DNA of 64,000 nt from a bacterium (GCA_030674455.1 JAUSGQ010000029.1:6625-70624), one strand, 5' to 3'; positions 1 through 49,907 are shown, numbered from the stretch's first letter. The notes: generated by a model not told the origin, from the sequence alone. Numbers and translations: made by a program.

Positions 1-1
1 A

Positions 2-3000
2 TCAACTTCCGGCGACTTAAACATCTCTTCCAACGACAACAACGGCGCTCTAATCAACGACAGTTACTCCGCATGGAACATCAAACTCGGAGGCCAGTCA
101 GACGCCTTCGCAATTCAACGTTCTCCGACAGGCACACTCTCGTACGCCAACTTCTTTAACATCAAGAACAACGGCAATGTCGGCATCGGAACATCTTCTC
201 CATACGCAATGCTCTCCGTTGCAGGCCAAGTCGTCGGCACTTACTTCACCGCCACATCCACCTCGCAAGCCAACACATTCCCGTACGCAAGCACGACCGC
301 GCTCACCGCAAGCGGAAACGCATACCTCGGCACAACGACCATCACAAATCTCGCCGTCTCCAACACGAGTACATCAACATTCGCTGGCGGACTCCAATCG
401 ACATATCTGAACATCACCGGCACATTGGCCACGAGTACATTCGCAAACGGCATCACCACATCCGGCGGAGGACTCGGGATAGGAACATCCACGCCTGCAG
501 GTACAGTCGGCATCAACGGCAACCTATTCGTATCAAATGCAAACGCCTCTTCCACCTTCACCGGCAACGTGGAAGTTTTGGGCGGGCTGAAAATCGGCAC
601 TGGCTCTATTTATCTAAACGGCTCCGCCACTAGCACCTACTCATCTGGACTCCAGGCAAGTGCGCTAAATATCACCGGCACATCCGCAACATCAACATTC
701 GCGCGAGGCATTGACCTCGCTGGTGGATGTTTCAGCATCAACGGCACTTGTGTTGGTGGAGGCGGGACAGACACAGTGGTACGGCTCGGCTCGATACAAA
801 CTTTCAGCGCCTCGTCAACAAATCTCACCTACACAACGCCAGCGAGTACCTCTTATATTGTTGTTGAAGTATGGGGTAGCGGTGGTGGCGGCGGTGGTGG
901 CGGCGATGGTGCCAGCCAGGGCGGCGGTGGCGGCGGCGCTGGCGGGTACTCAATGAAGTTCATTACAAGTCCTGCTTCTACGTACAAATACACGATTACC
1001 GATGGCGGGACTGGCGGTCAAAACGGTGCCAATGGTTCCGCTGGCGGCACGTCATGCTTCGGAACAAACGCCACTGCGTGCACCACTCCGCTCCTAAGCG
1101 CGACCGGAGGCGCCCTTGGGAGTGGCACAGCAGGTGCCGGCGGTGCCGGTGGCGCTGGTTTCAGCGGTGATGTCAATATGACTGGCCAGGGCGGCATTGG
1201 CGGTGGCAACCGCGGTGGGACAGGCGGTAGCGCTCCACGGGGCGGCGGTGGAGGTGTTGGTGGTCCCGAGAATAGCGTTGGCGCGAGTTTCGGCGGCGGC
1301 GGCGGCGGTGCTGCCGCCGCGGGTAGCGCAACAGACGGTGGTAACGGAGGTGTGGGCGGCATCATCGTCTACGAATACAAGACTGTCACATCAGGTACCG
1401 ACCTCGCCGAGAACTATCCTGTTTCTGACCCATCCATATCAGCGGGTGAAATTGTTTCTTTTGACGGAGTGAATCCAATATTCGTTAAGCGTGCGGAGAA
1501 AGGCGAAGGACGACCGCTCGCGGGAATCATTTCCACAAAGCCCGGCCTTCTCCTAGACGATAACGATGACTCGCTCGGAGAAAGGCCCGTCGCTCTTGCC
1601 GGCCGCGTGCCGACGAAAGTTTCCGCAGAGAACGGCCCAATCGCTATCGGCGACCGCATCACGCTTTCCTCGGTGCCGGGTGTCGGTATGAAAGCGAACA
1701 TATTTGACGAATCCATAGGTGTCGCGCTTGAACCGTATGATGCAGACCCTTCGACAATCTCAGGGCAGGCGGGCGTTATCCAAGTCTTTATGAACCTTCA
1801 GCCGGGCATTGACGTGCAGGCAATCGGCAAAGCACTTATCGCTCCCGTTGCAACATCAACGCCCAACACCTTCGACTTCGTCGGCTCGCTAATTGATGCC
1901 ATCGCCGCTCGCATGGGAACCACGACCGTCACGAATGTCGCGCTCACAAATTCATCAACCACTGCGACCGACCTGCTCTGCCTTGGTGGCGATTGCCGCA
2001 CGGCGTGGCCTGACATTGCGACCTCAACGATTGACTTCTCGCAGTACGCGACGCTTGCCGATTTTGCCGTTGCAACCTCCAGTATGTTCGACTTCGTAAG
2101 TCGAACATACGTCACGAAGTATGAATTTGATGCGCTTTTTGCAACCACGACATCCTTGTCCGCCGAAGTCCTTGCGACGAAGGCGGAGCTTGCCGATTTA
2201 ACTACGAACTACGGACTACTGACTACGAACTACTCCACACAAGGAGACACCTTGTCGCAACTCGCATCCGCACTCGCAGGCCTCGCAACTTCTACTCCCG
2301 ATCTATCGCAATACGCATCCCAAGACTGGGTCTCCGCCCTCGTCGCCTCTTCTACGGACTACGCACTACGCACTACGAACTTTTTGACGGGAACAATGAC
2401 AGGAAATATTCTGCCCGACACAGACAACCTCTACGCCCTCGGCTCGCCGGAGAACCGCCTATCTAATGTGTACGCCAAGAACATCAACGCAGGCGACCTC
2501 ACATTCACCGAAACCACGAGCGCAATCTCCGGCGACACCCTCGCCGTCGGCGACATGGTTTCTCTTTACGTCACTTCAACAGCAGGAAGCACCCACACAA
2601 TTCCAATCAACCTCCGCACCGCGCTCAACTCCAACAGCTGGGGGGCCAACAATATCTTCTTCAATACGACAGGAGGATTCGGCATCGGCATCTCCAGCAC
2701 CACAGCTCTCCGAGCGAAGCTTGACGTGGAAGGCGCAATCGCCTCCGGCGACTCCCGCTACCTCACTCTCGCCAACACATCAGGAGCGAACGGCAACGCC
2801 GCCCTCCCGTACAGCTTCACCATCCCCTCAACTTCAGGCGACTTGAACATCTCCTCCAACGACAACAACGGCGCTCTCGTCAACTCCAGCTACTCCGCAT
2901 GGAACATCAACCTTGGAGGCCAATCAGACGCCTTTGCCATACAACGCTCTCCCAATGGAACACTTTCATACGCCAACTTCTTCAACATCAAGAACAACGG

Positions 3001-6000
3001 CAACGTCGGCATCGGAACATCTTCTCCATACGCCATGCTCTCGGTGGCAGGCCAAGTTGTCGGCACTTACTTCACCGCCACATCCACAACACTGGCTAAC
3101 ACCTTCCCATACGCAAGCACGACCGCGCTCACCGCAAGCGGAAACGCATACCTCGGCACAACGACCATCACAAACCTCGCCGTCTCCAACACGAGTACAT
3201 CAACATTCGCTGGCGGGCTCCAATCTACATATCTAAACATCACAGGCACAGTGTCGACATCAACATTCGCCAGAGGTATTGACCTCTCCGGCGGATGCTT
3301 CTCGGTGAATGGCACATGCGTCGGCGGTTCTTCCGTCACGGGTACGACCGGACAGCTTACATACTTCAGCGATACGAATACTGCCGTAGGCACATCCACG
3401 CTCTTTGTCTCCACCGCGAGCAACGTCGGAATCGGAACAACGACGCCCAACTGGACGCTGACATCTTCCAACTCAACAGGCCCTCAGCTTTCCCTCGGCG
3501 ATGGCTCCAACAACTCATGGACATTCAGAAACTCCGGCGCGACACTGTATCTCGCGACTTCCACATACTCCGCCACTTCAACAACAGCGGCTCTTGCCTT
3601 CAACAACTCCACGGGTGCCGCGACATTCGGCTCTCCCGCCACATCAACATTCACAGGAGGAATAACATCTACATACCTGAACATCACCGGCACAAACGCC
3701 ACTTCAACATTCGCTAGAGGAATTGACATCGCGGGCGGATGCTTCGCGATAAATGGAACGTGCGTGGGCGGCTCGTCGCTCACAGGCACCACCGGACAGC
3801 TCGCATACTTTAGCGGTACAGACACCGGAGTTGGAACTTCCACACTATTCATCTCCACAGCAAGCAATGTCGGCATCGGGACGACGACGCCGGGAGCAAC
3901 TCTCACAATCCAAGCCGCTCTCAACGCGACACCATTCATAATTGCATCCTCCACCGGCGCGACGATGCTCTCGGTAGACACGACCGGCGCGCTTTCGGCC
4001 AAATTAAAACAACTCACTGCCGATTACACCGTTGATTCCTCCAGTGCAAGCATCAGTGTCGGCGACGTCGTTTCGTATATCAATGGGAATGCGAAGAAAG
4101 CTAATGCCGTTGTCCCAGGCACCACCATCACCGCCGGCACTCCAGTCGCCGCCAATGCCGTCGCCTCCTCACCCGTCTCCGCCACCACCCTTGACGCCAC
4201 CCACTTCGTGGTGGCATATTCGGGTACTTCAGGCTATGCCAATGCTGTCGTAGGCACCGTCTCCGGCACAACCATCACATACGGCACTCCCGTCGCCCTA
4301 AACGCCGTCGCCTCCACCTACACCTCCGCCACCACCCTTGATTCTACCCACTTTGTGGTGGCGTATAGAAACGGAAGTACAGGCTACGCCAATGCTGTCG
4401 TATCCACCGTCTCCGGTACCACCATCACCGCTGGCACCCCCGTTGCCCTGAACGCCGTTGGCTCCACCTTACAGAATTCAAACTCATCAGCAGTCGCCGC
4501 TCTTGACTCCACCCACTTCGTGGTAGCGTATCGGAACGATGATACCACTTATGCCAACGCCGTCGTCTCCTCAGTCTCCGGTACCACCATCACCGCCGGC
4601 ACTCCCGTAGCGTTGAACGCCGTCGCCTCCAGCTACACCGCCACCGCCTCCCTTGACGCCACCCACTTCGTGGTTACGTATAAGGGCGCCTCAGGCTACG
4701 CCAATGCCGTTGTATCCTCAGTCTCCGGTACCACCATCACCGCCGGCACTCCCGCGGTTCTTAATGCCATCAATTCTTTCTACTCAAATACCGCCTCCCT
4801 TGACGCCACCCACTTCGTGGTAGCGTATTATAACGCGACAACAGGCTTCGGTGACGCCGTCATCTCCTCAGTCTCCGGTACCACCATCACCGCCGGCACT
4901 CCCGTGGCTCTTAATGCTGTTACCTCTACCTCCTACTCCGTCAACGCTCTGGACTCCACCCACTTTGTGGTTGCGTATAATGGCACATCAAACTACGCTA
5001 CCGCCGTCGTTTCTATCGTCTCCGGCACCACTTTCACTCCCGGCACTCCCGTGGCTCTTAATGCCGTTGCATCTGGGTTACATTCCGTTGCGGTCATAGA
5101 CGCCACCCACTTTGTGACGGCGTATCAGAACAACGTTACAACCTACGCTGACGCCGTCGTCTCTAGTCTCAATACCGTTATCGCCGCTGGTACTAACATT
5201 CTCGGCATGGCCACCAACGCTACGACGAGTACTAATAATACGATTACAGTTGCCTCCAACGGCATCGTGACAGGTCTCTCCGGTCTTACCGCTGGAAGCA
5301 CCTACTATTGGAATGGGGCGCTTACCACCACTGCGAGCACCAACTACCCCGTCGGAATCGCGCTCACCACCACCTCAATGCTTCTCAACTCCGGCAATCG
5401 CGGTGCGAGCGCGAGTACCGACCAATTCTTCGGCGATATGATATTCGCCAACAACTTCCGCATCACGGAGAATCAGAGTCTGCCCAACTCGCTCATCTTC
5501 AAGAACCAGCTCAGCCGCGACATCATGTCGCTGGACGAAAACGGCAACATTGCTCTTTCCGGGTTGCTCACGGCCTCCAATATCGGACCGAACATTTTCA
5601 ACCTGCTTGGCACGACTACTATAGATGAGCTCACGGCTTCGACCACCTTGACAAGCTCGGGGCAAGCAAGCACAACACCCACATGGGCAGGGGCGTTCGC
5701 AGACGCGAGTGATACGCTCAAGAGCGCTCTGCAAGAGTTCTCCGACGCGGTAGTTCAAGTCTTCGGCCGGGCAATCTACGCGACAGCGGGCATATTTGAA
5801 AAAATATTTTCAAAAGAGGTGCACACAGACAAACTCTGCGTTTCAGATTCGGAAGGGGAGACATGCGTTACGCGCGCCCAGCTTGATGTGCTTCTTGCTT
5901 CAGCTGCGACTGGAGCCGCTTCCGCCGAAGGCGGAAGTGGCGAAACAGCCAGCTCAACAGTGAGTAGCAGTACTGCCACATCTTCGGATTCTTCCGCGTC

Positions 6001-6385
6001 TTCTGCGTCTAGTTCCGCGCCGTCTGCGGGCGATAGTCAGGTGCCGACTATCGCCATCAACGGCAACAATCCCTCGAACATCACAATAGGCGACACCTAT
6101 GGCGACCTCGGAGCCATCATCACCGGCCCGACAGAATCAGACAAAAATCTTGGCATCTACACATTCCTCGATGGTGTGGCGATGGACACCATACAATTAG
6201 ATACGAGCGTGGCAGGCGAGCATACAATAGATTACGTCGCCACGAACTCCTTCGGCGCCGCGACCAGTACGCGCACAGTGATAATTGAAGCCCCGGCAGA
6301 AGTAGTTGTTGAAGTTCCGGCAGACACGGCAACTACGACAGACTCAACTGCGACTACAACGTCTGCAACAAGTACAACGCCTTAG
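2..6385 (+). CDS. Giant repeat-rich secreted/cell-surface protein, 5'-partial (frame open from window start). Contains NVGIGT(S/T)TP-type motifs, a glycine-rich module, LNITGT-ATSTFARGID-GGCF-INGTCVGG modules, eight ~50-aa 'THFVVAY' repeats, and a C-terminal Ig-like (DUF5011-like) domain with a Ser/Thr-rich linker
   Basis: Frame-2 translation is open from nt 2 and matches the later repeat unit at nt 2829-3250 (internal duplication). The ORF track M at 209 is internal. The C-terminal 'PTIAINGNNPSNITIGDTYGDLGAIITGPT...TRTVII' resembles Ig-like DUF5011 domains. Confidence 0.7.
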   Translation, partial: STSGDLNISSNDNNGALINDSYSAWNIKLGGQSDAFAIQRSPTGTLSYANFFNIKNNGNVGIGTSSPYAMLSVAGQVVGTYFTATSTSQANTFPYASTTALTASGNAYLGTTTITNLAVSNTSTSTFAGGLQSTYLNITGTLATSTFANGITTSGGGLGIGTSTPAGTVGINGNLFVSNANASSTFTGNVEVLGGLKIGTGSIYLNGSATSTYSSGLQASALNITGTSATSTFARGIDLAGGCFSINGTCVGGGGTDTVVRLGSIQTFSASSTNLTYTTPASTSYIVVEVWGSGGGGGGGGDGASQGGGGGGAGGYSMKFITSPASTYKYTITDGGTGGQNGANGSAGGTSCFGTNATACTTPLLSATGGALGSGTAGAGGAGGAGFSGDVNMTGQGGIGGGNRGGTGGSAPRGGGGGVGGPENSVGASFGGGGGGAAAAGSATDGGNGGVGGIIVYEYKTVTSGTDLAENYPVSDPSISAGEIVSFDGVNPIFVKRAEKGEGRPLAGIISTKPGLLLDDNDDSLGERPVALAGRVPTKVSAENGPIAIGDRITLSSVPGVGMKANIFDESIGVALEPYDADPSTISGQAGVIQVFMNLQPGIDVQAIGKALIAPVATSTPNTFDFVGSLIDAIAARMGTTTVTNVALTNSSTTATDLLCLGGDCRTAWPDIATSTIDFSQYATLADFAVATSSMFDFVSRTYVTKYEFDALFATTTSLSAEVLATKAELADLTTNYGLLTTNYSTQGDTLSQLASALAGLATSTPDLSQYASQDWVSALVASSTDYALRTTNFLTGTMTGNILPDTDNLYALGSPENRLSNVYAKNINAGDLTFTETTSAISGDTLAVGDMVSLYVTSTAGSTHTIPINLRTALNSNSWGANNIFFNTTGGFGIGISSTTALRAKLDVEGAIASGDSRYLTLANTSGANGNAALPYSFTIPSTSGDLNISSNDNNGALVNSSYSAWNINLGGQSDAFAIQRSPNGTLSYANFFNIKNNGNVGIGTSSPYAMLSVAGQVVGTYFTATSTTLANTFPYASTTALTASGNAYLGTTTITNLAVSNTSTSTFAGGLQSTYLNITGTVSTSTFARGIDLSGGCFSVNGTCVGGSSVTGTTGQLTYFSDTNTAVGTSTLFVSTASNVGIGTTTPNWTLTSSNSTGPQLSLGDGSNNSWTFRNSGATLYLATSTYSATSTTAALAFNNSTGAATFGSPATSTFTGGITSTYLNITGTNATSTFARGIDIAGGCFAINGTCVGGSSLTGTTGQLAYFSGTDTGVGTSTLFISTASNVGIGTTTPGATLTIQAALNATPFIIASSTGATMLSVDTTGALSAKLKQLTADYTVDSSSASISVGDVVSYINGNAKKANAVVPGTTITAGTPVAANAVASSPVSATTLDATHFVVAYSGTSGYANAVVGTVSGTTITYGTPVALNAVASTYTSATTLDSTHFVVAYRNGSTGYANAVVSTVSGTTITAGTPVALNAVGSTLQNSNSSAVAALDSTHFVVAYRNDDTTYANAVVSSVSGTTITAGTPVALNAVASSYTATASLDATHFVVTYKGASGYANAVVSSVSGTTITAGTPAVLNAINSFYSNTASLDATHFVVAYYNATTGFGDAVISSVSGTTITAGTPVALNAVTSTSYSVNALDSTHFVVAYNGTSNYATAVVSIVSGTTFTPGTPVALNAVASGLHSVAVIDATHFVTAYQNNVTTYADAVVSSLNTVIAAGTNILGMATNATTSTNNTITVASNGIVTGLSGLTAGSTYYWNGALTTTASTNYPVGIALTTTSMLLNSGNRGASASTDQFFGDMIFANNFRITENQSLPNSLIFKNQLSRDIMSLDENGNIALSGLLTASNIGPNIFNLLGTTTIDELTASTTLTSSGQASTTPTWAGAFADASDTLKSALQEFSDAVVQVFGRAIYATAGIFEKIFSKEVHTDKLCVSDSEGETCVTRAQLDVLLASAATGAASAEGGSGETASSTVSSSTATSSDSSASSASSSAPSAGDSQVPTIAINGNNPSNITIGDTYGDLGAIITGPTESDKNLGIYTFLDGVAMDTIQLDTSVAGEHTIDYVATNSFGAATSTRTVIIEAPAEVVVEVPADTATTTDSTATTTSATSTTP
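4095..5170 (+). repeat. Tandem array of about 8 x 150-nt coding repeats inside the giant protein (ANAVVSSVSGTTITAGTPVALNAV...LDATHFVVAY units), possibly propeller-blade-like
   Basis: Repeated peptide units seen in the translation; the nucleotide periodicity of about 150 nt is visible. Confidence 0.75.
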
Positions 6386-6444
6386 ATAATAAATAAAAAC
6401 GTATGAAAAAAGACTTTAACAAAGTGAATGTGTGGATAAGCAAA

Positions 6445-6469
6445 AGCGCGGCGGCTCTGCCGCCGCGCT
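6445..6469 (+). terminator. GC-rich hairpin (agcgcggcggc-tctg-gccgccgcgct) downstream of the giant gene. It is followed by an extended -10-like TGGTACAAT upstream of the RhuM gene
   Basis: Inverted repeat seen in the sequence. There is no strong T-tract, so terminator function is tentative. Confidence 0.4.
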
Positions 6470-6486
6470 GGTACAATGAGTAAAAT

Positions 6487-7506
6487 ATGAAGAAAAAAAA
6501 TAAACTTCCTGACAATCAAATAACATTTTATGAATCACCCGACGGAACGGTGAACATTGAAGTGTTATATGCTGAAGAAAACATTTGGCTTACTCAAAAA
6601 AGAATGGCCGAGCTCTTTAATTGTTCCACAGACAACATTTCGCTTCACTTAAAGAATATTTATCAGGAAAATGAAGTTGACCAAAAATCAACTACCGAGG
6701 AATTCTCGGTAGTTCAAAAAGAGGGAGAAAGAAAGATTGCTCGAAAAGTCACTTTTTATAGTCTCGAGGCCATTATCGCCGTAGGGTATCGAGTAAGCTC
6801 CGAGCGCGGAACACAATTTCGCCAGTGGGCAACGGGCATTTTGAAAAAGTATATCCACAAGGGGTACTCGCTGGATGTGAATCGAATGAAATACGGCTCT
6901 CGTTTTAGCACAAGATATTTTGACGAGCTGTACGAAGAAATCAGAGATATCCGTACGGGTGAGCGGATGATGTATCAAAAAATCACCGATATTTATGCAA
7001 CGGCAATCGATTATTCGCCAAAAGCACATGAGAGCAAAGAATTTTTTGCCACCGTACAAAACAAACTGCACTTTGCCATAACGGGAAAAACTGCGGCAGA
7101 AATTATCACAGAGCGAGTAAGCAGTAAAAAAGACAAAATGGGATTAACGTCTTGGCGATGCTCTCCGAGAGGGAAAATTATGTCAAGCGACACCGTCATT
7201 GCCAAAAATTACTTGGACAAAAAAGAACTAGAACATTTGAACCGCATTGGAAATATGTATTTGGACTATGCTGAATTACAAGTGGCTCGGAGCAAAACAA
7301 TGACTATGAAGGATTGGATAAAAAAACTCAATGCCTTTCTCAAATTTAGCGAATATGAGATTTTGACGAACGCGGGAAAAATATCGCACGAGGTGGCAGT
7401 AGTTTTAGCAGAGCGTGAGTATGGAAAATACCGCGCGATTCAAGACAAAAATTACATTTCTGATTTTGACCGTGAAGTGAAGAAACTACGCAAAAAAACG
7501 CCATGA
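6487..7506 (+). CDS. RhuM-family virulence-associated protein (putative DNA-binding)
   Basis: N-terminal 'ITFYESPDGTVNIEVLYAEENIWLTQKRMAELF...ISLHLKNIY' is the hallmark start of RhuM-family proteins. Confidence 0.8.
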   Translation: MKKKNKLPDNQITFYESPDGTVNIEVLYAEENIWLTQKRMAELFNCSTDNISLHLKNIYQENEVDQKSTTEEFSVVQKEGERKIARKVTFYSLEAIIAVGYRVSSERGTQFRQWATGILKKYIHKGYSLDVNRMKYGSRFSTRYFDELYEEIRDIRTGERMMYQKITDIYATAIDYSPKAHESKEFFATVQNKLHFAITGKTAAEIITERVSSKKDKMGLTSWRCSPRGKIMSSDTVIAKNYLDKKELEHLNRIGNMYLDYAELQVARSKTMTMKDWIKKLNAFLKFSEYEILTNAGKISHEVAVVLAEREYGKYRAIQDKNYISDFDREVKKLRKKTP

Positions 7507-8981
7507 AAAACTTCACCCAAAAAACATTCGGGATTGTCACATCACTTGCGTTAGTATTCGGGCCATTCATAGCACTCGCTCCGAGCGCGAGCGCGGCCTC
7601 CTATGTCAACATCGCAGTCCCCTCAAATACCAGTCTTACCGGAGGACTCTTGCTCTTCTACACTCTTGACGGCACGAAATTCTCTACCACCACCGTCACC
7701 GACATGAGCGGGAACGGGAAGACTGGGACGCCTTCTGTGGCAAGATCGGCTGTTGCGGCCGCGGCGGCACAAGGACAACAAGCATACACAACCGCACAAT
7801 CTACAAGCTGGACTGCTCCCGCCGGAGTAACGAGCGTGAGTGTGGTTTGCGTTGGAGGTGGTGGTAGTTGGGGATCGTACGATGATGGAGAAACACTTTA
7901 CATCAGGTCAGCTGGTGGGGGTGCTCTTGCTTATGCTAATAATATAACAGTAGTGCCAGGTAATGCATATGATGTAGTTGTCGGTAATCATGCACCATCT
8001 AACGGAGGTGTTGGCAATCCCGGTGGAGCAAGTTCCTTTAATGTTACCACATGCAAAGCAAATGGTGGTGGGAGTGGAAGCAACACGTCATCTGCGACAC
8101 ATGGATTAGGCGGAACGGTGGTGTATGGAACTGGTGGAAGTGGAGGTAACGGTGAACAAACTGGCCTCATGTCTGCTGGCGGTGCTGGTGGATATTCGGG
8201 CAATGGCGGCGCAGGCGGGAACGCGACCGGAGGAAATGGCAGTGGTGGAGGTGGAGGAGGAGGTGCTTATGCGGGAGGGATAGGACGTGCTGGTGGGGGT
8301 GTTGGTATTTTAGGGGAGGGAACAAGTGGGGCTGGCGGCACTTCTGGTACTCCCGATGGCGGAGGAGGATCTGGTGGAGGAACGGGGGGAAATGGAAATA
8401 ATATATATGGAGGCGCACCCAAATATGGTGACCTTGCGGCAGTAGGTGCCGTTCGCATCATCTGGGGCACCAGTCGCTCATTCCCATCTACGAATACTGG
8501 GGATATGTCGACAGTCGAGGGAGTCGCGGGAGTCGCCACCACCACAGCCCCCCTCAAAACCACCGGTAAAATCGGCCAAGCCATCAAGTTTGATGGAATC
8601 ACTGCGAGCACCACCGTCGGCAATGTATCCTCATCAGTAAAGTCAGTCGCATTCTGGGCCAAGGTCGCCACCTCAACTACCCAGCAGAACATCATTGACC
8701 TCAACGGCAGTGGAGCAAATATTGAAATCGTAAATGGCGTTGTCACCGCCAACGGCTTCACCAGCCCCACTATATATGTAGACGGAGCAGTAACTTCTAC
8801 CCTCAACAACACCAACTGGCACCATGTAGTAATCACCACCGGCACGAATGTAAACGCCAGCAACGTCTCTCTCGGCGTCGCCTCATCAACCTACTTCGGC
8901 GGCTCTCTAGACGACCTCCGCATCTATAATAAGGCACTATCTGCAAGCGAGGTGAGGAGACTGTACGGATTGGGGAACTAA
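7503..8981 (+). CDS. Secreted glycine-rich protein with C-terminal LamG/concanavalin-A-like lectin domain
   Basis: Signal peptide (MKNFTQKTFGIVTSLALVFGPFIALAPSASAAS). Long GGxGG-rich region introduced by 'WTAPAGVTSVSVVCVGGGG', paralogous to 'YTTPASTSYIVVEVWGSGGGG' in the giant protein. C-terminal 'SLDDLRIYNKALSASEVRRLY' is typical of Laminin_G_3 domains. Confidence 0.65.
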   Translation: MKNFTQKTFGIVTSLALVFGPFIALAPSASAASYVNIAVPSNTSLTGGLLLFYTLDGTKFSTTTVTDMSGNGKTGTPSVARSAVAAAAAQGQQAYTTAQSTSWTAPAGVTSVSVVCVGGGGSWGSYDDGETLYIRSAGGGALAYANNITVVPGNAYDVVVGNHAPSNGGVGNPGGASSFNVTTCKANGGGSGSNTSSATHGLGGTVVYGTGGSGGNGEQTGLMSAGGAGGYSGNGGAGGNATGGNGSGGGGGGGAYAGGIGRAGGGVGILGEGTSGAGGTSGTPDGGGGSGGGTGGNGNNIYGGAPKYGDLAAVGAVRIIWGTSRSFPSTNTGDMSTVEGVAGVATTTAPLKTTGKIGQAIKFDGITASTTVGNVSSSVKSVAFWAKVATSTTQQNIIDLNGSGANIEIVNGVVTANGFTSPTIYVDGAVTSTLNNTNWHHVVITTGTNVNASNVSLGVASSTYFGGSLDDLRIYNKALSASEVRRLYGLGN

Positions 8982-9027
8982 CTATCTGCGCATATCCCAG
9001 AGGCAAGTCAAAACCATCAAGGCTCAA

Positions 9028-9054
9028 AACCATCAAGGCGACGCCTTGATGGTT
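9028..9054. repeat. 27-nt perfect hairpin (aaccatcaaggcg-a-cgccttgatggtt) at the 3' flank of the RAYT gene. A half-copy lies at 9011-9022
   Basis: Seen in sequence; an identical copy lies at 9762-9788. Confidence 0.9.
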
Positions 9055-9740
9055 TCAGTAAAATAAGGGTCATCGGTCGCGACACTTGCGTAATACGCGC
9101 GGGCGTCCTCGAGCATTTTGCGTGGCGCGGTATTGCGGTACACGTCAAACGCGTCGCGGGAAAGTATTGCGACGATGTCTCGTTTCTCACCCGCAAAATC
9201 CGGAAAACTCGAATAGCGATATCCGCGCAGGAATTTTTCCAGCCGTGCCATGTCGCGCACCGCTCCTTTTTTCCATCCCGGTGCGAAGCGCTCGGCAGGA
9301 TTGCAATGGATGTAGTTGACGACGTGCTGGAAGTAGAGGTCTTCCCCCACATGCCGCGAGCGAAACGGTTTCATAAAAAGATTTCCTGTTCGATCGTTTT
9401 TCTTGTTGAAGTACATCGTGTACGCGGTACCGAGTTTCTGCATAAAGCGTGTGATCCCGCCCTCCATGATCTCCTTGAGAAGCAGGTGAAAATGATTCGG
9501 CATGAGGCAGTATGCCCCGATAGATACAAGAGCATTGGAGCGTTCAAGGGAAATTATCTCGCTCGTCGTTCGCTCCGAGAGATTGCTCCGATGCAGCGTG
9601 TCCGTCGAGTTCGCCAGATAGAGAATCTGTAAGAAGCGTTCCGAATTATCCTCGCTTTCGAAGACTATCCGCTTCTCGATGCCTCTGTTGTAACAGTGGA
9701 ACCATTCGTCGATTTGGAATGGGACTGGACGTTGCGCCAT
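9033..9740 (-). mobile_element. IS200/IS605-type Y1 (HUH) transposase, REP-associated tyrosine transposase (RAYT)-like
   Basis: 'LMPNHFHLLL' HUH motif and 'YIHCNPAE'. Likely start MAQRPVPF (ATG at 9740). The ORF-track start at 9794 lies inside the flanking hairpin. Confidence 0.8.
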
Positions 9741-9761
9741 ACGGCAAGTGTACCACAAGAA

Positions 9762-9788
9762 AACCATCAAGGCGACGCCTTGATGGTT
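9762..9788. repeat. Second copy of the 27-nt perfect hairpin, immediately 5' of the RAYT gene
   Basis: Identical to 9028-9054. Confidence 0.9.
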
Positions 9789-9809
9789 CTTCAAGGAGCG
9801 TCGTGTGGA

Positions 9810-14420: not shown

Positions 14421-15095
14421 TCACTCTATCACAAATATGCGTTCTGTTCCGTAGTATTCTTGCCAGTTAGCGTTATAGAAAGCAAACATGCGCTCCAAGC
14501 GGCTTTGGGGTAATTCCTTTACGCCAAGCTCTTGCATGAGGGTGCGAACTTGCGCTTCGGCGGACGAGAGCTCGACCTTATCGCTTACGACGCGCTCGAA
14601 TTCGGCAAGCCAGCCGTAGCCCGCATTTTTGTCGAGCGTTACGTTGACGCCTTTGCAAATATACTCCTCGCGCTCGCGCGACCACTTCGCCTGATACTTG
14701 AATCCGGCGGAAAGGACGAGTGCGTCCAGTTCAGCGAGAGTCATGGAAACCTTCTCCTCGAATTCCATGCGTGCGATTCCATTGGCGCTCGTGTCGTCTC
14801 CAACCGAGGCTTTGACGACGAGAAGTACTGTTCCATCCTTATCACGCGTACGCACCGAGAAATTCTTGGCACGACCGACAAGATCGGAAAGTCGCCCCGA
14901 AATTTCCGCAGGAAATTTCGGGGCAGTAATCTCAACAAGTTTCTCCAAATCGCCGCTTTCAAAATAATGATTCAACTGTTTGTTCCGTGATGTAAGAGTG
15001 CATCCAGAATTCGCTTTTTTTAGCGCTTCGCGGACTTGGTCTGCGCGTTCCTTATCGCCAAGCAAAGATTTTACTTCCACCTCGTATGAATGCAT
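14421..15095 (-). CDS. CYTH-domain protein (class IV adenylyl cyclase / triphosphate-tunnel metalloenzyme-like)
   Basis: N-terminal 'YEVEVKSLL' resembles the CYTH ExExK motif. Assignment is moderate. Confidence 0.45.
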   Translation of the reverse strand: MHSYEVEVKSLLGDKERADQVREALKKANSGCTLTSRNKQLNHYFESGDLEKLVEITAPKFPAEISGRLSDLVGRAKNFSVRTRDKDGTVLLVVKASVGDDTSANGIARMEFEEKVSMTLAELDALVLSAGFKYQAKWSREREEYICKGVNVTLDKNAGYGWLAEFERVVSDKVELSSAEAQVRTLMQELGVKELPQSRLERMFAFYNANWQEYYGTERIFVIE

Positions 15096-15124
15096 TAGGG
15101 CATTATATCCGTTATAGTAGAGAT

Positions 15125-15787
15125 ATGAAAAAGCATGTTATGGCAATAACTGGTGTAGCGGTTGTTTTTGTTCTCTTTGTGCTGGTCAGAAATTATTCCG
15201 GAATTCATCCAGATTTGCAGCCTACTTTACCAGGTTTGTTGTTGGTTGGAAATTATGAAGGAGCTCGCCCAGTTTTACAACCTTCCATGCCTTTTCCTTC
15301 ACTACCCCCATTACCGTCTTCTCAAGCCGGACATGATTATGGTCCTAGACGACCAACTTATCCTGCGGATGTCCCACTAGGTGTAATGCCCGAGATAGGC
15401 TACACACATAGATATAATACCTTTCGCCCACTTGAAGAGAATGTTGGTGGAACGGAGATTCATTCAGCAAAAATTCTCAACGCACTTCTTGTCTCTATCA
15501 GATATTCTTCCGTCTCGCACAACATTCGCGCCTTTGAATATGGCGAACTCATATACGCTGAAGTCGGGCCAAAAGATGGGGGAGGATGGCAAAACGTATT
15601 TAAGAAAGAAAACGGTGGGTATAGACCCATATTACAGACTCAAGGTAGTGCCTCGTGTGTTCTCTATACAAAATTCAACGCCCCGGTTGGATTGATGTGT
15701 AGATTTGGCGGCGAATGTCTTCTGGTTTCGACCACGACACATCGTTATACAATTAAAAGTTTCCCAGAATGTTGGACGTATAAATAA
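15125..15787 (+). CDS. Hypothetical membrane-anchored protein
   Basis: ORF with N-terminal TM helix (MKKHVMAITGVAVVFVLFVLV) and Pro-rich linker. No recognised domain. Confidence 0.4.
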   Translation: MKKHVMAITGVAVVFVLFVLVRNYSGIHPDLQPTLPGLLLVGNYEGARPVLQPSMPFPSLPPLPSSQAGHDYGPRRPTYPADVPLGVMPEIGYTHRYNTFRPLEENVGGTEIHSAKILNALLVSIRYSSVSHNIRAFEYGELIYAEVGPKDGGGWQNVFKKENGGYRPILQTQGSASCVLYTKFNAPVGLMCRFGGECLLVSTTTHRYTIKSFPECWTYK

Positions 15788-35949: not shown

Positions 35950-36115
35950 TTGCAACGTGCGTTTCGGTTGCCGATGTTCTGGCCTACGCGAATGGAAACA
36001 GTAAAGGCACAGACGGTCAAACAAAATGAGTGCATAACTATTGAGATAATCAAAGTTTTCTTCAGAATTGAGAAGGCGTCCAGTTTGTGTTATGTATATG
36101 GCAGCGGACGAGACG
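35950..36115. repeat. About 165-bp direct repeat, copy 1 (about 85-90 % identical to 37025-37190), flanking the IS200-like element
   Basis: Seen in sequence. Confidence 0.8.
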
Positions 36116-36180
36116 TTATTTTTTTTGGTGAGTCCATTAAAGAGGAGAGCAGCGTGCATATTTTATTCGCGGGGAAAAGG

Positions 36181-36247
36181 GAAAAGGTGTCAGGAATCTT
36201 TTGTTGGAAAAGAAAAGGCAAGAAAAGGTGTCAGGAACCTTTTGTTG
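36181..36247. repeat. Left terminal repeats of the IS200-like element: two tandem hairpins gaaaaggtgtcagga(a/t)c(c/t)ttttgttg
   Basis: Inverted copies (cctgacaccttttc x3) lie at 36927-36990. Confidence 0.8.
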
Positions 36248-36265
36248 ATATGGTATAGTACACAA

Positions 36266-36940
36266 ATGGGAAGAGCGCTTCGTACTGATGTCGGAGGTTA
36301 TGTGTACCATGTATTAAATCGAGCGAACGCTCGCTCGACGATATTCAGGACAAAGGCAGATTACGAGTTGTTTGAAAAGGTGCTTGAAGAGGCCAAGGAA
36401 TTAATCGGCATGAGAATTCTTGCGTACTGCATCATGCCAAATCACTGGCATCTCGTGCTGTATCCCAAGAGTGATGGCGATTTGTCGAAGTTTGTTAATT
36501 GGCTGACGTTAACGCACACCCAACGCTGGCATGCCGCACATAATACGATTGGACACGGCCACTTGTATCAAGGGCGATACAAATCATTTCTGTGCGAGGA
36601 TGATGTTCACTTTATTCATCTCGTGCGATATGTGGAGCGTAATGCTTTACGAGCCAATCTTGCGCCTCGGGCAGAGGATTGGCGATGGGGAAGTGCGTGG
36701 CGACGGATTAACGGTACCGCGAAGCAGAAAGAATTGCTCGGTTCATGGCCGGTGCATATGCCGCAACGATATGTTGAACTCTTGAATCATCCGCAATCGG
36801 AGGAAGAAGTTAATGCGATGCGGCGGGCAGTTACCCGTGGCAATCCGTATGGTTCAGACGAATGGATAGAAAGGATGATAAAGAAGTTCCGTCTCGAAAC
36901 AACGGTTCGTTCGAGGGGCAGACCAAGAAAAGGTTCCTGA
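36266..36940 (+). mobile_element. IS200/IS605-type Y1 (HUH) transposase
   Basis: 'YHVLNRAN...RILAYCIMPNHWHLVL...HLYQGRYKSF...YVERNALRANL'. Start taken at MGRALRTD; the ORF-track start at 36068 reads through the flanking repeats. Confidence 0.8.
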
Positions 36941-48194: not shown

Positions 48195-49907
48195 ATGTAT
48201 CGAGTTTACATTTCGAGTTTAATCGCCGCGTTGGGCATCATAAGCCCCGCAATCGCCCTTTCGCAGAGCTATTCATATCCCTACATGACGGCAACCGGCT
48301 GTGTCAGCCTTTCGCGCGATTTAACCGTCGGGTCGCGAAGCTCCGATGTGACATCTCTCCAGAATTTCCTTCTCACGCAGAATTATCCCGGCTCCGGTGC
48401 CTGGATGGTGACCGGTTATTTCGGTTCCGCGACACGTCAGGCAGTTCTCAACTTCCAATCGCAGAGAGGCCTTGCCGGAACCGGCATTGCTGATGCGCAG
48501 ACGCGCGCCGCAATCTCGGTTTCCACGTGCAGCGGCAACTACGGTTCATACGTTTACAATTCGGCATACTATGCTCCGGTACCGACTGTCGCACCAACAT
48601 ACACATACCCGAACACCACGAATGTTCTCATCAATTTGCTCTCGGTAACGTCAGGCCCGGTAGGAACATCAGTGACGATTTACGGAAACGGTTTTGATGC
48701 CGCCTACAATAATGTGTACTTCGGCAACACTCCCGTCTCCGGCAACATCGCTTCCAACGGAAGCTCGCTCACGTTTACCGTACCAACATCGTTCACTTCA
48801 AATTGCACCGGATACGGATGCACTATCTACAACAGGTACACAAATCCGGGCGTTTACCAGATTTACGTAACCAACACCAGAGGAACGAGCAACAGCCTTC
48901 CGTTCACTGTTACGGCCGGTGGAGTTGCCGGATGCCCGTGGTATATAAACTTTGGAAATTGCGGAAGCTGGAATGGCGGTGCCTATTGGAACGCGAACGT
49001 AAACAGCTTGTATCCGACATCGGGCGGAGTCGGCACGTCTGTTACGGTTTTCGGCTCAGGATTTTCGCAGAGAGGCAACTCCGTGCATTTTGGTCCGGGC
49101 GTGATAACGAACCTGACATCTTCGGATGGCACATCGCTTTCATTCACCGTTCCATCCCAGTTCACGGGCTACGGCTCTCAATCCATGGCGGTAGGAACGT
49201 ATAACGTTTCCGTCACTAACGACAGAGGGTCAACAAGCAACTCGCTTCCTTTCACAGTTACTTCTATAGAACAAAACACGCTTCCCCCGACGATTACCAG
49301 CGTAAACGGGCCCACGCGGATTGCAGCCGGTGCGGCGGGAGTATGGAGCATTACGCTCAGCAGCTATGGAGCATCTAACATAACTACATCTGTGAGATGG
49401 GGCGATGAAGGTACCTATGGTATACCGGTAGCCGCAACTTCTCAAACAGTTACATCCGCAACATCGCAGACTCTCACGTTTACTCACACGTATCAGACAG
49501 GAGGTGTCTACATGGCAGTGTTCACCGTTACAGACAACGCGGGCAGACAAAACACCGCGTCTGCGACAGTGATCGTTACTCCTTACGGCTCATCCCAGCT
49601 CGCGCTTTCGAATGTCACACCTGCGACCGGCAGAGTTGGTACACTCGTAACGATTACGGGAACAGGTTTTACGCTTTCGGGTAACACCGTGCATTTTGGA
49701 ACAGGGGGCGCTTCAAATCTGACATCTTCAAACAACGGAACGACGCTCTACTTTACGATTCCGGCGTACCTTTCTCCTTGCGATGTAGTGGCACAAGGAA
49801 ATATGTGCCCTCAATATATCCAGCAGGTAACGCCCGGCTCATATCCGATATACGTGAGCAACGCCGCAGGACAGACAGGAACCCTCTACTTTACGGTTAC
49901 TCAATAA
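48195..49907 (+). CDS. Secreted protein with peptidoglycan-binding-like domain and multiple IPT/TIG-like Ig-fold repeats
   Basis: Signal peptide. 'SDVTSLQNFLLTQNY...GYFGSATRQAVLNFQSQRGLAGTGIADAQTRAAI' (PG_binding_1-like). Repeated 'TSGPVGTSVTIYGNGF...' units. Confidence 0.65.
   Translation: MYRVYISSLIAALGIISPAIALSQSYSYPYMTATGCVSLSRDLTVGSRSSDVTSLQNFLLTQNYPGSGAWMVTGYFGSATRQAVLNFQSQRGLAGTGIADAQTRAAISVSTCSGNYGSYVYNSAYYAPVPTVAPTYTYPNTTNVLINLLSVTSGPVGTSVTIYGNGFDAAYNNVYFGNTPVSGNIASNGSSLTFTVPTSFTSNCTGYGCTIYNRYTNPGVYQIYVTNTRGTSNSLPFTVTAGGVAGCPWYINFGNCGSWNGGAYWNANVNSLYPTSGGVGTSVTVFGSGFSQRGNSVHFGPGVITNLTSSDGTSLSFTVPSQFTGYGSQSMAVGTYNVSVTNDRGSTSNSLPFTVTSIEQNTLPPTITSVNGPTRIAAGAAGVWSITLSSYGASNITTSVRWGDEGTYGIPVAATSQTVTSATSQTLTFTHTYQTGGVYMAVFTVTDNAGRQNTASATVIVTPYGSSQLALSNVTPATGRVGTLVTITGTGFTLSGNTVHFGTGGASNLTSSNNGTTLYFTIPAYLSPCDVVAQGNMCPQYIQQVTPGSYPIYVSNAAGQTGTLYFTVTQ

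Follow-up and report, generated by a model that had tools for sequence, protein, structure and literature searches.

In the tail fibre of the cyanophage Pam3, the strands of a TNF-like sandwich extend into a four-layer glycine-rich lattice, the variable distal tips of which have been proposed to recognise the host receptor (PMC9608196). Systems related to Pam3 gp24 (7YPX) include gp33 of mycobacteriophage Bxb1, the "tail wing brush" (9D93), and gp38 of Salmonella phage S16, and the extracellular glycine-rich domain of ALK/LTK (7LIR, 7LRZ) is a further known system with a glycine-rich domain. Here we describe a locus at the beginning of a bacterial DNA stretch of 64,000 nt (GCA_030674455.1, JAUSGQ010000029.1:6625-70624; this whole stretch is referred to as the window), where a domain of the same kind, Gly_rich_2 (PF21722), is found both in a giant protein and in a secreted LamG-domain protein, with a RhuM-family gene between their genes. 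Unlike the Pam3 gp24 type, which is the end of a short trimeric virion fibre, the domain is found here in a Sec-secreted LamG fusion and in a cellular protein of more than 2,100 aa; neither an N-terminal helical docking domain nor a gp25-like chaperone gene was seen, although the chaperone was not specifically searched for. We consider it fairly probable that the locus encodes a membrane-anchored adhesion fibre and a secreted, lectin-like partner, with RhuM as a separate gene. No component falls outside the known families and folds, and the locus is therefore built of known kinds.

Both proteins match PF21722 (profile length 226) above its gathering threshold of 24.3 bits: aa 256-470 of the giant protein align with profile positions 4-224 at 35.0 bits (E = 2e-8), and the LamG protein aligns with positions 1-214 at 25.7 bits (E = 1.4e-5). 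Among the PHROG families, phrog_863 matches the glycine-rich domain of the giant protein (E = 1.9e-27) and phrog_4474 that of the LamG protein (E = 4.9e-45). A hidden Markov model (HMM) built from 71 homologues of the giant protein's copy recovers the giant protein at E = 4.5e-45 and the LamG protein at E = 1e-13, and comparison of the two families by hhalign gives a probability of 98.6% (E = 6.6e-16). The homology is visible solely by Pfam, by this profile-profile comparison and by this reverse HMM: pairwise BLASTP of the two modules is not significant (E = 0.99), the HMM built from the LamG-type family alone gave no match below E = 1e-5 to the module of the giant protein, and when the PDB was searched with the sequence of either protein, only artificial Gly-Ser linkers came up. 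The sequence-only reading had proposed a glycine-rich module common to both proteins, to be discarded if the similarity were compositional bias lacking a conserved flanking motif. The module is indeed common to both, and its non-glycine flanking strands are conserved in the two families along with the glycines, as FT..GT.T.P.G...I.VEV.GGGG ... G.VIV.EY in the 71 giant-type sequences and as AYTTAGTYSWVAPAGVTSVSVV-GGGG ... GAVRIIW in the 114 LamG-type sequences. Judged by these profiles, the two modules are homologous but distantly related domains. The module is not unusual, as had been thought, since a curated Pfam family exists for it and its structure has been solved in phage tail fibres and ALK; nor are the proteins paralogues. 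Whole-protein paralogy was rejected, as one distant domain is all that the two have in common.

In the LamG protein, the domain has the fold of the Pam3 gp24 type, a TNF-like sandwich and a stacked lattice of extended glycine-rich segments. Its best structural matches are the virion proteins Pam3 gp24 and Bxb1 gp33, and its BFVD matches are phage "glycine-rich domain-containing proteins." On one IMG/VR contig (UViG_3300033073_000996; L052), three tandem phrog_4474 genes for proteins of 401, 385 and 644 aa are found at 5256-9557, near a virion structural protein gene. A tblastn search with the glycine-rich domain of the LamG protein gave no match in 50,697 phage records, probably due to low-complexity masking. 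Most PF21722 homologues found are small (220-400 aa, often with FN3), unlike the proteins described here. Within giant Patescibacteria proteins, the domain was found in only 6 of the 51 reference-genome loci searched, plus the window; PF21722 modules lie inside the giant proteins of L015, L026, L044, L046 and L048.

Given such matches, the locus might derive from a phage, integrated or degraded, or from a phage-tail-like particle, in which case its genes would be tail-fibre genes and the two proteins virion components. Several modules, of the shaft and the glycine-rich type, have matches among the tail-fibre PHROG families, and the phage character of the best structural matches and the tandem genes of the same family on the viral contig are in line with such an origin. 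The base composition divides the locus: the GC content at third codon positions (GC3) is atypical in the RhuM and LamG genes, which a Y1 transposase gene adjoins, but that of the giant gene (0.616, at an overall GC of 56%) agrees with the genome backbone. Moreover, the homologous giants have an N-terminal transmembrane helix and adjoin the genes for EF-G and Obg in Patescibacteria chromosomes, the LamG protein carries a predicted Sec signal peptide (recognised by eye), and no other phage gene lies in the 57 kb downstream. The remaining 55 kb are ordinary chromosome, with genes for SHMT, ThyA, Dcd, DHFR, PurL/Q/E/M/C/B, Nramp, GlnA, Amt, enolase and PPDK, and contain no phage genes and no tRNA genes; an NCBIfam search yielded no usable names. 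With housekeeping neighbours and a signal peptide, the genes differ from virion genes of the Pam3 gp24 type and have a cellular context. A prophage was rejected on this context, and we regard a phage origin of the proteins in the wider sense as very improbable.

The giant gene is open in frame 2 from nt 2 to the stop codon at 6383-6385 (2127 aa), the other two forward frames containing 62 and 54 stops. It continues beyond the 5' end of the window, so that only the C-terminal 2127 aa, taken to be about two-thirds of the protein, are in view. The giant surface-type protein of the sequence-only reading is borne out, and its visible part is organised as follows.

2..6385, plus strand: C-terminal part of the giant protein, a single open frame, collinear with the full-length homologue P0339
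2..451, plus strand: shaft module A, copy 1, with the motif NVGIGTSSP; matches phrog_9942 "tail fiber protein" (E = 2e-6)
aa 1-253, plus strand: shaft module A and two-cysteine cap GGCFSINGTCVGG, the N-terminal side of the giant protein in the window
722..760 and again 3290-3328 and 3734-3772, plus strand: two-cysteine cap motif GGCFSINGTCVGG (regular expression, self-BLAST)
818..1372, plus strand (aa 273-457): Gly_rich_2 (PF21722) by Pfam, flanked by the strands LTYTTPASTSYIVVEVWG and GGIIVYEY
1412..2827, plus strand (aa 471-942): "stalk" region with weak family matches only
2828..3277, plus strand: shaft module A, copy 2, in frame, 2826 nt from copy 1
aa 943-1109 of the giant protein: module A copy 2 with cap
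3194..3907, plus strand (aa 1065-1154 and 1213-1302): two shaft B modules, each with NVGIGTTTP
aa 1110-1340 of the giant protein: the two B modules and the third cap
4121..5176, plus strand (aa ~1374-1725): predicted seven-bladed beta-propeller of seven ~50-aa THFVVAY repeats plus closing strand
aa 1746-2010 of the giant protein: region without family match, and Ser/Thr-rich linker
6050..6286, plus strand (aa 2017-2095): Bact_surface_Ig-like PF16403 (formerly DUF5011) by Pfam, followed by a Thr-rich tail

The B modules (repeat family D4) are 79-81% identical between copies at the protein level and 77% at the nucleotide level. The weak matches of the stalk are to End_tail_spike (E = 0.008) and phrog_1171 (E = 3.5e-4), with a tail-spike-like short motif at about aa 800-828. 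As anticipated, there is a DUF5011-type immunoglobulin-like (Ig-like) domain, PF16403, which scores 28.8 bits (E = 1.3e-6) where the cutoff is 27, and the same C-terminal layout of Ig-like domain and tail is found in L001, L007, L008, L022, L023, L033, L043 and P0339.

The repetition of module A had been described as a recent duplication of about 2.83 kb, or ongoing gene conversion, in which nt 1-420 and 2829-3250 were nearly identical. The module does occur twice in frame, at nt 1-452 and 2827-3278, offset by 2826 nt (942 codons), but with a nucleotide identity of only 88.7% and a protein identity of 95% across the first 120 aa. At this fixed offset the ungapped identity sinks to background past about nt 480. 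Hence no block of 2.83 kb is duplicated within the window: similarity at that offset stops after ~450-480 nt, and what occurs twice, 2.8 kb apart, is at least 450 nt, copy 1 being cut by the window edge. In self-comparison, a shorter motif recurs at further offsets. Over 140 codons, the two copies show 32.5 synonymous and 7.5 non-synonymous differences, corresponding to a synonymous divergence (dS) of 0.39, a non-synonymous divergence (dN) of 0.024 and a dN/dS of 0.06; the module was therefore duplicated long ago, and purifying selection acts on both copies. On the extent, the nucleotide identity and the dS, a recent duplication or ongoing gene conversion is rejected. The sequence-only reading had also spoken of fast-evolving surface proteins, but for this module the purifying selection is strong. 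One stretch stands apart, as nt 301-390 and 3127-3216 are identical at 89 of 90 nt against ~11% divergence across the module; it may be a short gene-conversion tract or be locally constrained.

The assembly hazard that had been thought likely is modest, because the longest exact run common to both copies is 65 nt. That the internal duplication is itself an assembly artefact, such as a chimeric join or a collapsed repeat, is extremely unlikely, although the source is a metagenome-assembled contig, the copies do have the 65-nt run in common and the window begins within copy 1, the full extent of which is not visible. The copies differ at 11% of positions, mainly synonymous, with the frame kept, and repetition of module A is the rule in relatives (5-18 module matches per protein). 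In addition, the metagenomic relative L055 holds the same unit of stalk plus module A, collinear with that of the window at 55% identity over 568 aa.

Downstream of the shafts, Tandem Repeats Finder reports 6.3 copies of a 147-nt unit at 4121-5067, and the THFV motif appears seven times in the translation (aa 1400-1702), with one further, partial unit at the flank. An AlphaFold2 model based on 91 homologues (predicted local distance difference test score, 88.5; predicted template-modelling score, 0.85) contains 29 strands, four per repeat and one additional closing strand. The top PDB matches by Foldseek are seven-bladed propellers, namely the Photorhabdus PLL/PHL fucose lectins, the EPTP domain of LGI1 and Sec12, with template-modelling scores (target-normalised) of 0.67-0.72 for PLL/PHL, and six-bladed sialidases rank after them. 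The THFVVAY repeats are thus confidently predicted to form a seven-bladed beta-propeller with a lectin-like shape; the suggestion of a propeller-like array was right in kind, but the number of blades is seven rather than eight. Like the PLL/PHL and EPTP propellers, the model has seven four-stranded blades of ~50 aa each (target-normalised scores of 0.61-0.72 for these systems together), but sequence identity to them is just 7-14%. An EPTP repeat is matched weakly, and in the giant protein of L022 only. No Pfam model covers the repeat, Clathrin_propel being borderline on a single repeat (21.4 bits against a cutoff of 21.3). The repeat family is large: cutoffs of E <= 1e-3 and E <= 1e-30 give 4,461 and 514 cluster representatives, respectively. 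It includes stand-alone proteins, some with sorting domains of the type IX secretion system (T9SS), as well as further giant proteins.

Relatives of module A in one-genome-per-species references were found at 51 loci, almost all of Patescibacteria (Saccharibacteria, Kaiserbacteria, Paceibacterota and Parcubacteria), with open reading frames (ORFs) of ~2,000-4,600 aa; the two-cysteine cap motif is present in 31 related loci. Like the giants L002 (4,593 aa), L022 (3,380 aa) and P0339, the window protein combines shaft modules, the cap motif and a propeller with a C-terminal Ig-like domain and a low-complexity tail. P0339 (2047 aa, full length) is 46% identical to it over 1149 aa and collinear with its aa 1000-2094; unlike P0339, the window protein has an additional PF21722 domain and the stalk region. 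The N-termini of 18 relatives are a conserved ~60-aa, excisionase-like helix-turn-helix (HTH) domain, followed by one hydrophobic helix at about aa 110-250, as exemplified by L007 (6653-13672) and L004 (803-8239), where HTH, single transmembrane helix and ectodomain follow one another; P0339 likewise has an HTH-like and transmembrane N-terminus. The HTH region (consensus ...GYT.DYIGQLCR.GK....VGR.WYV...) has sub-threshold matches to HTH_17 (E = 1e-4 to 7e-3). It is unusual for a giant surface protein to carry a cytoplasmic domain of the DNA-binding type. Given the homology of its visible part to these anchored relatives, the window protein is probably exposed on the cell surface.

Downstream of the giant gene are the RhuM and LamG genes, the features of which are listed below.

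6445..6469, no strand assigned: GC-rich hairpin with an 11-bp stem, past the stop codon of the giant gene and ahead of RhuM
6487..7506, plus strand: RhuM-family gene, 339 aa (PF13310, PDC-S05)
7503..8981, plus strand: two-domain LamG protein, 492 aa, by translation
7503..7595, plus strand: predicted Sec signal peptide, as read by eye (MKNFTQKTFGIVTSLALVFGPFIALAPSASA/AS; ASA/A cleavage site)
7770..8501, plus strand (aa 90-333): TNF-like beta-sandwich and glycine-rich lattice domain (PF21722)
8580..8966, plus strand (aa ~360-488): LamG / concanavalin-A-like jelly-roll domain

The secreted LamG-domain neighbour noticed from the sequence alone holds up: Laminin_G_3 scores 33.4 bits against a cutoff of 27.6, the jelly-roll fold is found as well, and the N-terminus resembles a signal peptide. 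An exact 492-aa copy in NCBI, from a metagenome-assembled genome, is named "LamG-like jellyroll fold domain-containing protein." In nine cases, counting the window, the 3' end of the giant gene is visible. A LamG-domain gene follows in four of them (L007, L023 and L047, all three with multi-LamG proteins, and the window), so that the link between the giant and LamG genes recurs in other Patescibacteria; RhuM follows in two (L022 and the window). The LamG linkage is accordingly recurrent but not obligatory, and the RhuM linkage rests on two cases. Small conserved ORFs of ~170-200 aa are found between the giant and LamG genes of L007 (13714-14319) and L023 (12115-12627), at the position that RhuM takes in the window; the identity between the two is 31%, and neither matches a Pfam family.

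The RhuM gene had been correctly placed between the giant and LamG genes. Its product scores 343.5 bits with PF13310 (E = 8e-103; cutoff, 33.7 bits) and matches the PADLOC defence candidate PDC-S05 over the full length at E = 2.6e-142 (positions 1-336 of 342). A role for RhuM as a toxin domain of defence loci associated with restriction-modification has been proposed (PMC3710099), and one unrelated PDC-S05 representative in E. coli lowered the plating of T5 and T7 ~1000-fold (PMC12881386). With a GC of 39.7% and a GC3 of 0.418, compared with a GC3 of 0.50-0.63 in 16 sampled housekeeping genes of the window, the gene resembles other RhuM genes in its foreign base composition and variable locus; unlike them, it has no restriction-modification or other recognised defence locus around it. 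On these features, it is best read as a horizontally acquired, mobile, defence-type gene and an insert unrelated to the fibre. In the Paceibacterota locus L022 (492-14272), a RhuM gene of 39.8% GC, 53.5% identical to that of the window, begins 25 nt beyond the giant gene of 3,380 aa and 53% GC, and is followed by a 697-aa ORF without Pfam, PADLOC or other match.

RhuM and the LamG protein could instead form one functional cassette that has nothing to do with the giant protein. Such a cassette might serve in defence or exclusion, with the secreted protein, which resembles phage receptor-binding proteins, as decoy or sensor. The LamG gene begins within the RhuM stop codon (ATGA at 7503-7506), its GC3 of 0.471 is, like that of RhuM, below the housekeeping range, and the hairpin, which may be a terminator with its T-run on the minus strand, sets both genes apart from the giant gene; RhuM is also 3' of the giant gene in L022. 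The protein after RhuM in L022 is an unrelated one, however, and in L007, L023 and L047 the LamG gene follows the giant gene without RhuM. As the catalogue entry for PDC-S05 is a candidate of one gene only and no PADLOC model matches the LamG protein, we find such a cassette quite improbable.

Based on the modules and their relatives, we propose that a single transmembrane helix at the N-terminus would anchor the giant fibre in the membrane, with a long ectodomain projecting from the cell and consisting, in order, of tail-fibre-like shafts with two-cysteine caps, PF21722, the stalk, more shafts, the propeller, the Ig-like domain and the Thr-rich tail. [quoted passage not shown] RhuM would be a separate mobile, toxin-like anti-phage gene that landed in a variable locus.

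Several points weigh against this proposal. The transmembrane anchor is attributed to the window protein from its homologues. The assignment of the window to a Patescibacteria-type bacterium of the candidate phyla radiation (CPR), which appears plausible, follows from where the relatives occur, and de novo purine synthesis, to which the pur genes of the window belong, is uncommon in CPR genomes. Just four of the nine giant genes have a LamG gene after them, and genes for EF-G, Obg and SLT follow in three others. Finally, the overlap of the RhuM stop with the LamG start could mean that the two genes work as a pair and that RhuM was not inserted here by accident.

The main rival of the adhesion-fibre reading is that the fibre and LamG protein are envelope or foraging proteins, serving as S-layer-like armour or in the capture of free polysaccharide rather than in attachment. 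LamG and propeller folds are typical of carbohydrate-binding modules and sialidases, and the nearest PDB sequence match of the LamG domain is an S-layer-domain protein (4qvs). The propeller family, moreover, is widespread, and many of its members are stand-alone proteins, some associated with T9SS, in bacteria outside the CPR. It is nevertheless in Patescibacteria that the giant modular architecture is concentrated; in those parts of the literature available to us, all cultivated members of this group are epibionts. The locus, moreover, has no linked gene for a glycoside hydrolase or transporter. The PF21722 fold has in addition been proposed as a recogniser of host receptors in a phage fibre (PMC9608196). 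We judge a role in the envelope or in glycan capture to be unlikely, though it deserves to be kept in mind; the prophage, the RhuM-LamG pair and the assembly artefact are less likely still.

To our knowledge, little has been established about how ultrasmall episymbiotic bacteria recognise their hosts. In the portions of the literature at hand, work on episymbiont host contact centres on type IV pili, the type IV secretion system and a few adhesins. The locus offers concrete candidates in the PF21722-bearing giant fibre, its lectin-like propeller and the secreted LamG partner. If the fibre does mediate attachment, the loops of the glycine-rich tip would be the obvious specificity determinants for comparison between strains. 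No prior description was found in the literature searched on PF21722 and on Patescibacteria tail fibres, and the presence of modules of the phage receptor-binding type inside giant proteins typical of a lineage appears mildly novel. The same may be said of the HTH-plus-transmembrane N-terminus of the relatives, for which a signalling role is possible.

Extending this, one may speculate that Patescibacteria have, lineage-wide, giant membrane-tethered fibres built from phage receptor-binding modules (tail-fibre shafts, TNF-like/polyglycine tip and propeller) that act both as adhesins and as ToxR-like one-component sensors. Contact with a host cell would then be coupled through the fibre to gene expression by the excisionase-like HTH of the cytoplasmic N-terminus, and a variable 3' cassette of LamG lectins and RhuM would be swapped, retuning host range and phage resistance. 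We hold this extended scheme to be distinctly unlikely.

Beside the LamG gene, an IS200-like Y1 transposase gene is found at 9033-9794 on the minus strand (Pfam Y1_Tnp, E = 3.6e-8; NCBIfam REP-associated tyrosine transposase, E = 3.9e-9, below cutoff). Two copies of one 29-nt palindromic hairpin, AAAACCATCAAGGCGACGCCTTGATGGTT, bracket the gene at 9026-9054 and 9760-9788; the palindrome occurs nowhere else in the window (0 chance matches expected), and a 16-nt tandem repeat lies by the gene at 9008-9039. A second IS200-like Y1_Tnp gene (36068-36940, E = 9e-18) lacks the exact palindrome. Between the CYTH and DHFR genes, 15086-15787 is a 233-aa ORF without a Pfam match; its GC3 of 0.329 is very low beside the 0.50-0.63 of the sampled housekeeping genes. 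The gene at 48195-49907 encodes a 570-aa protein with PG_binding_1 and IPT/TIG domains, which is likely to be an envelope protein.

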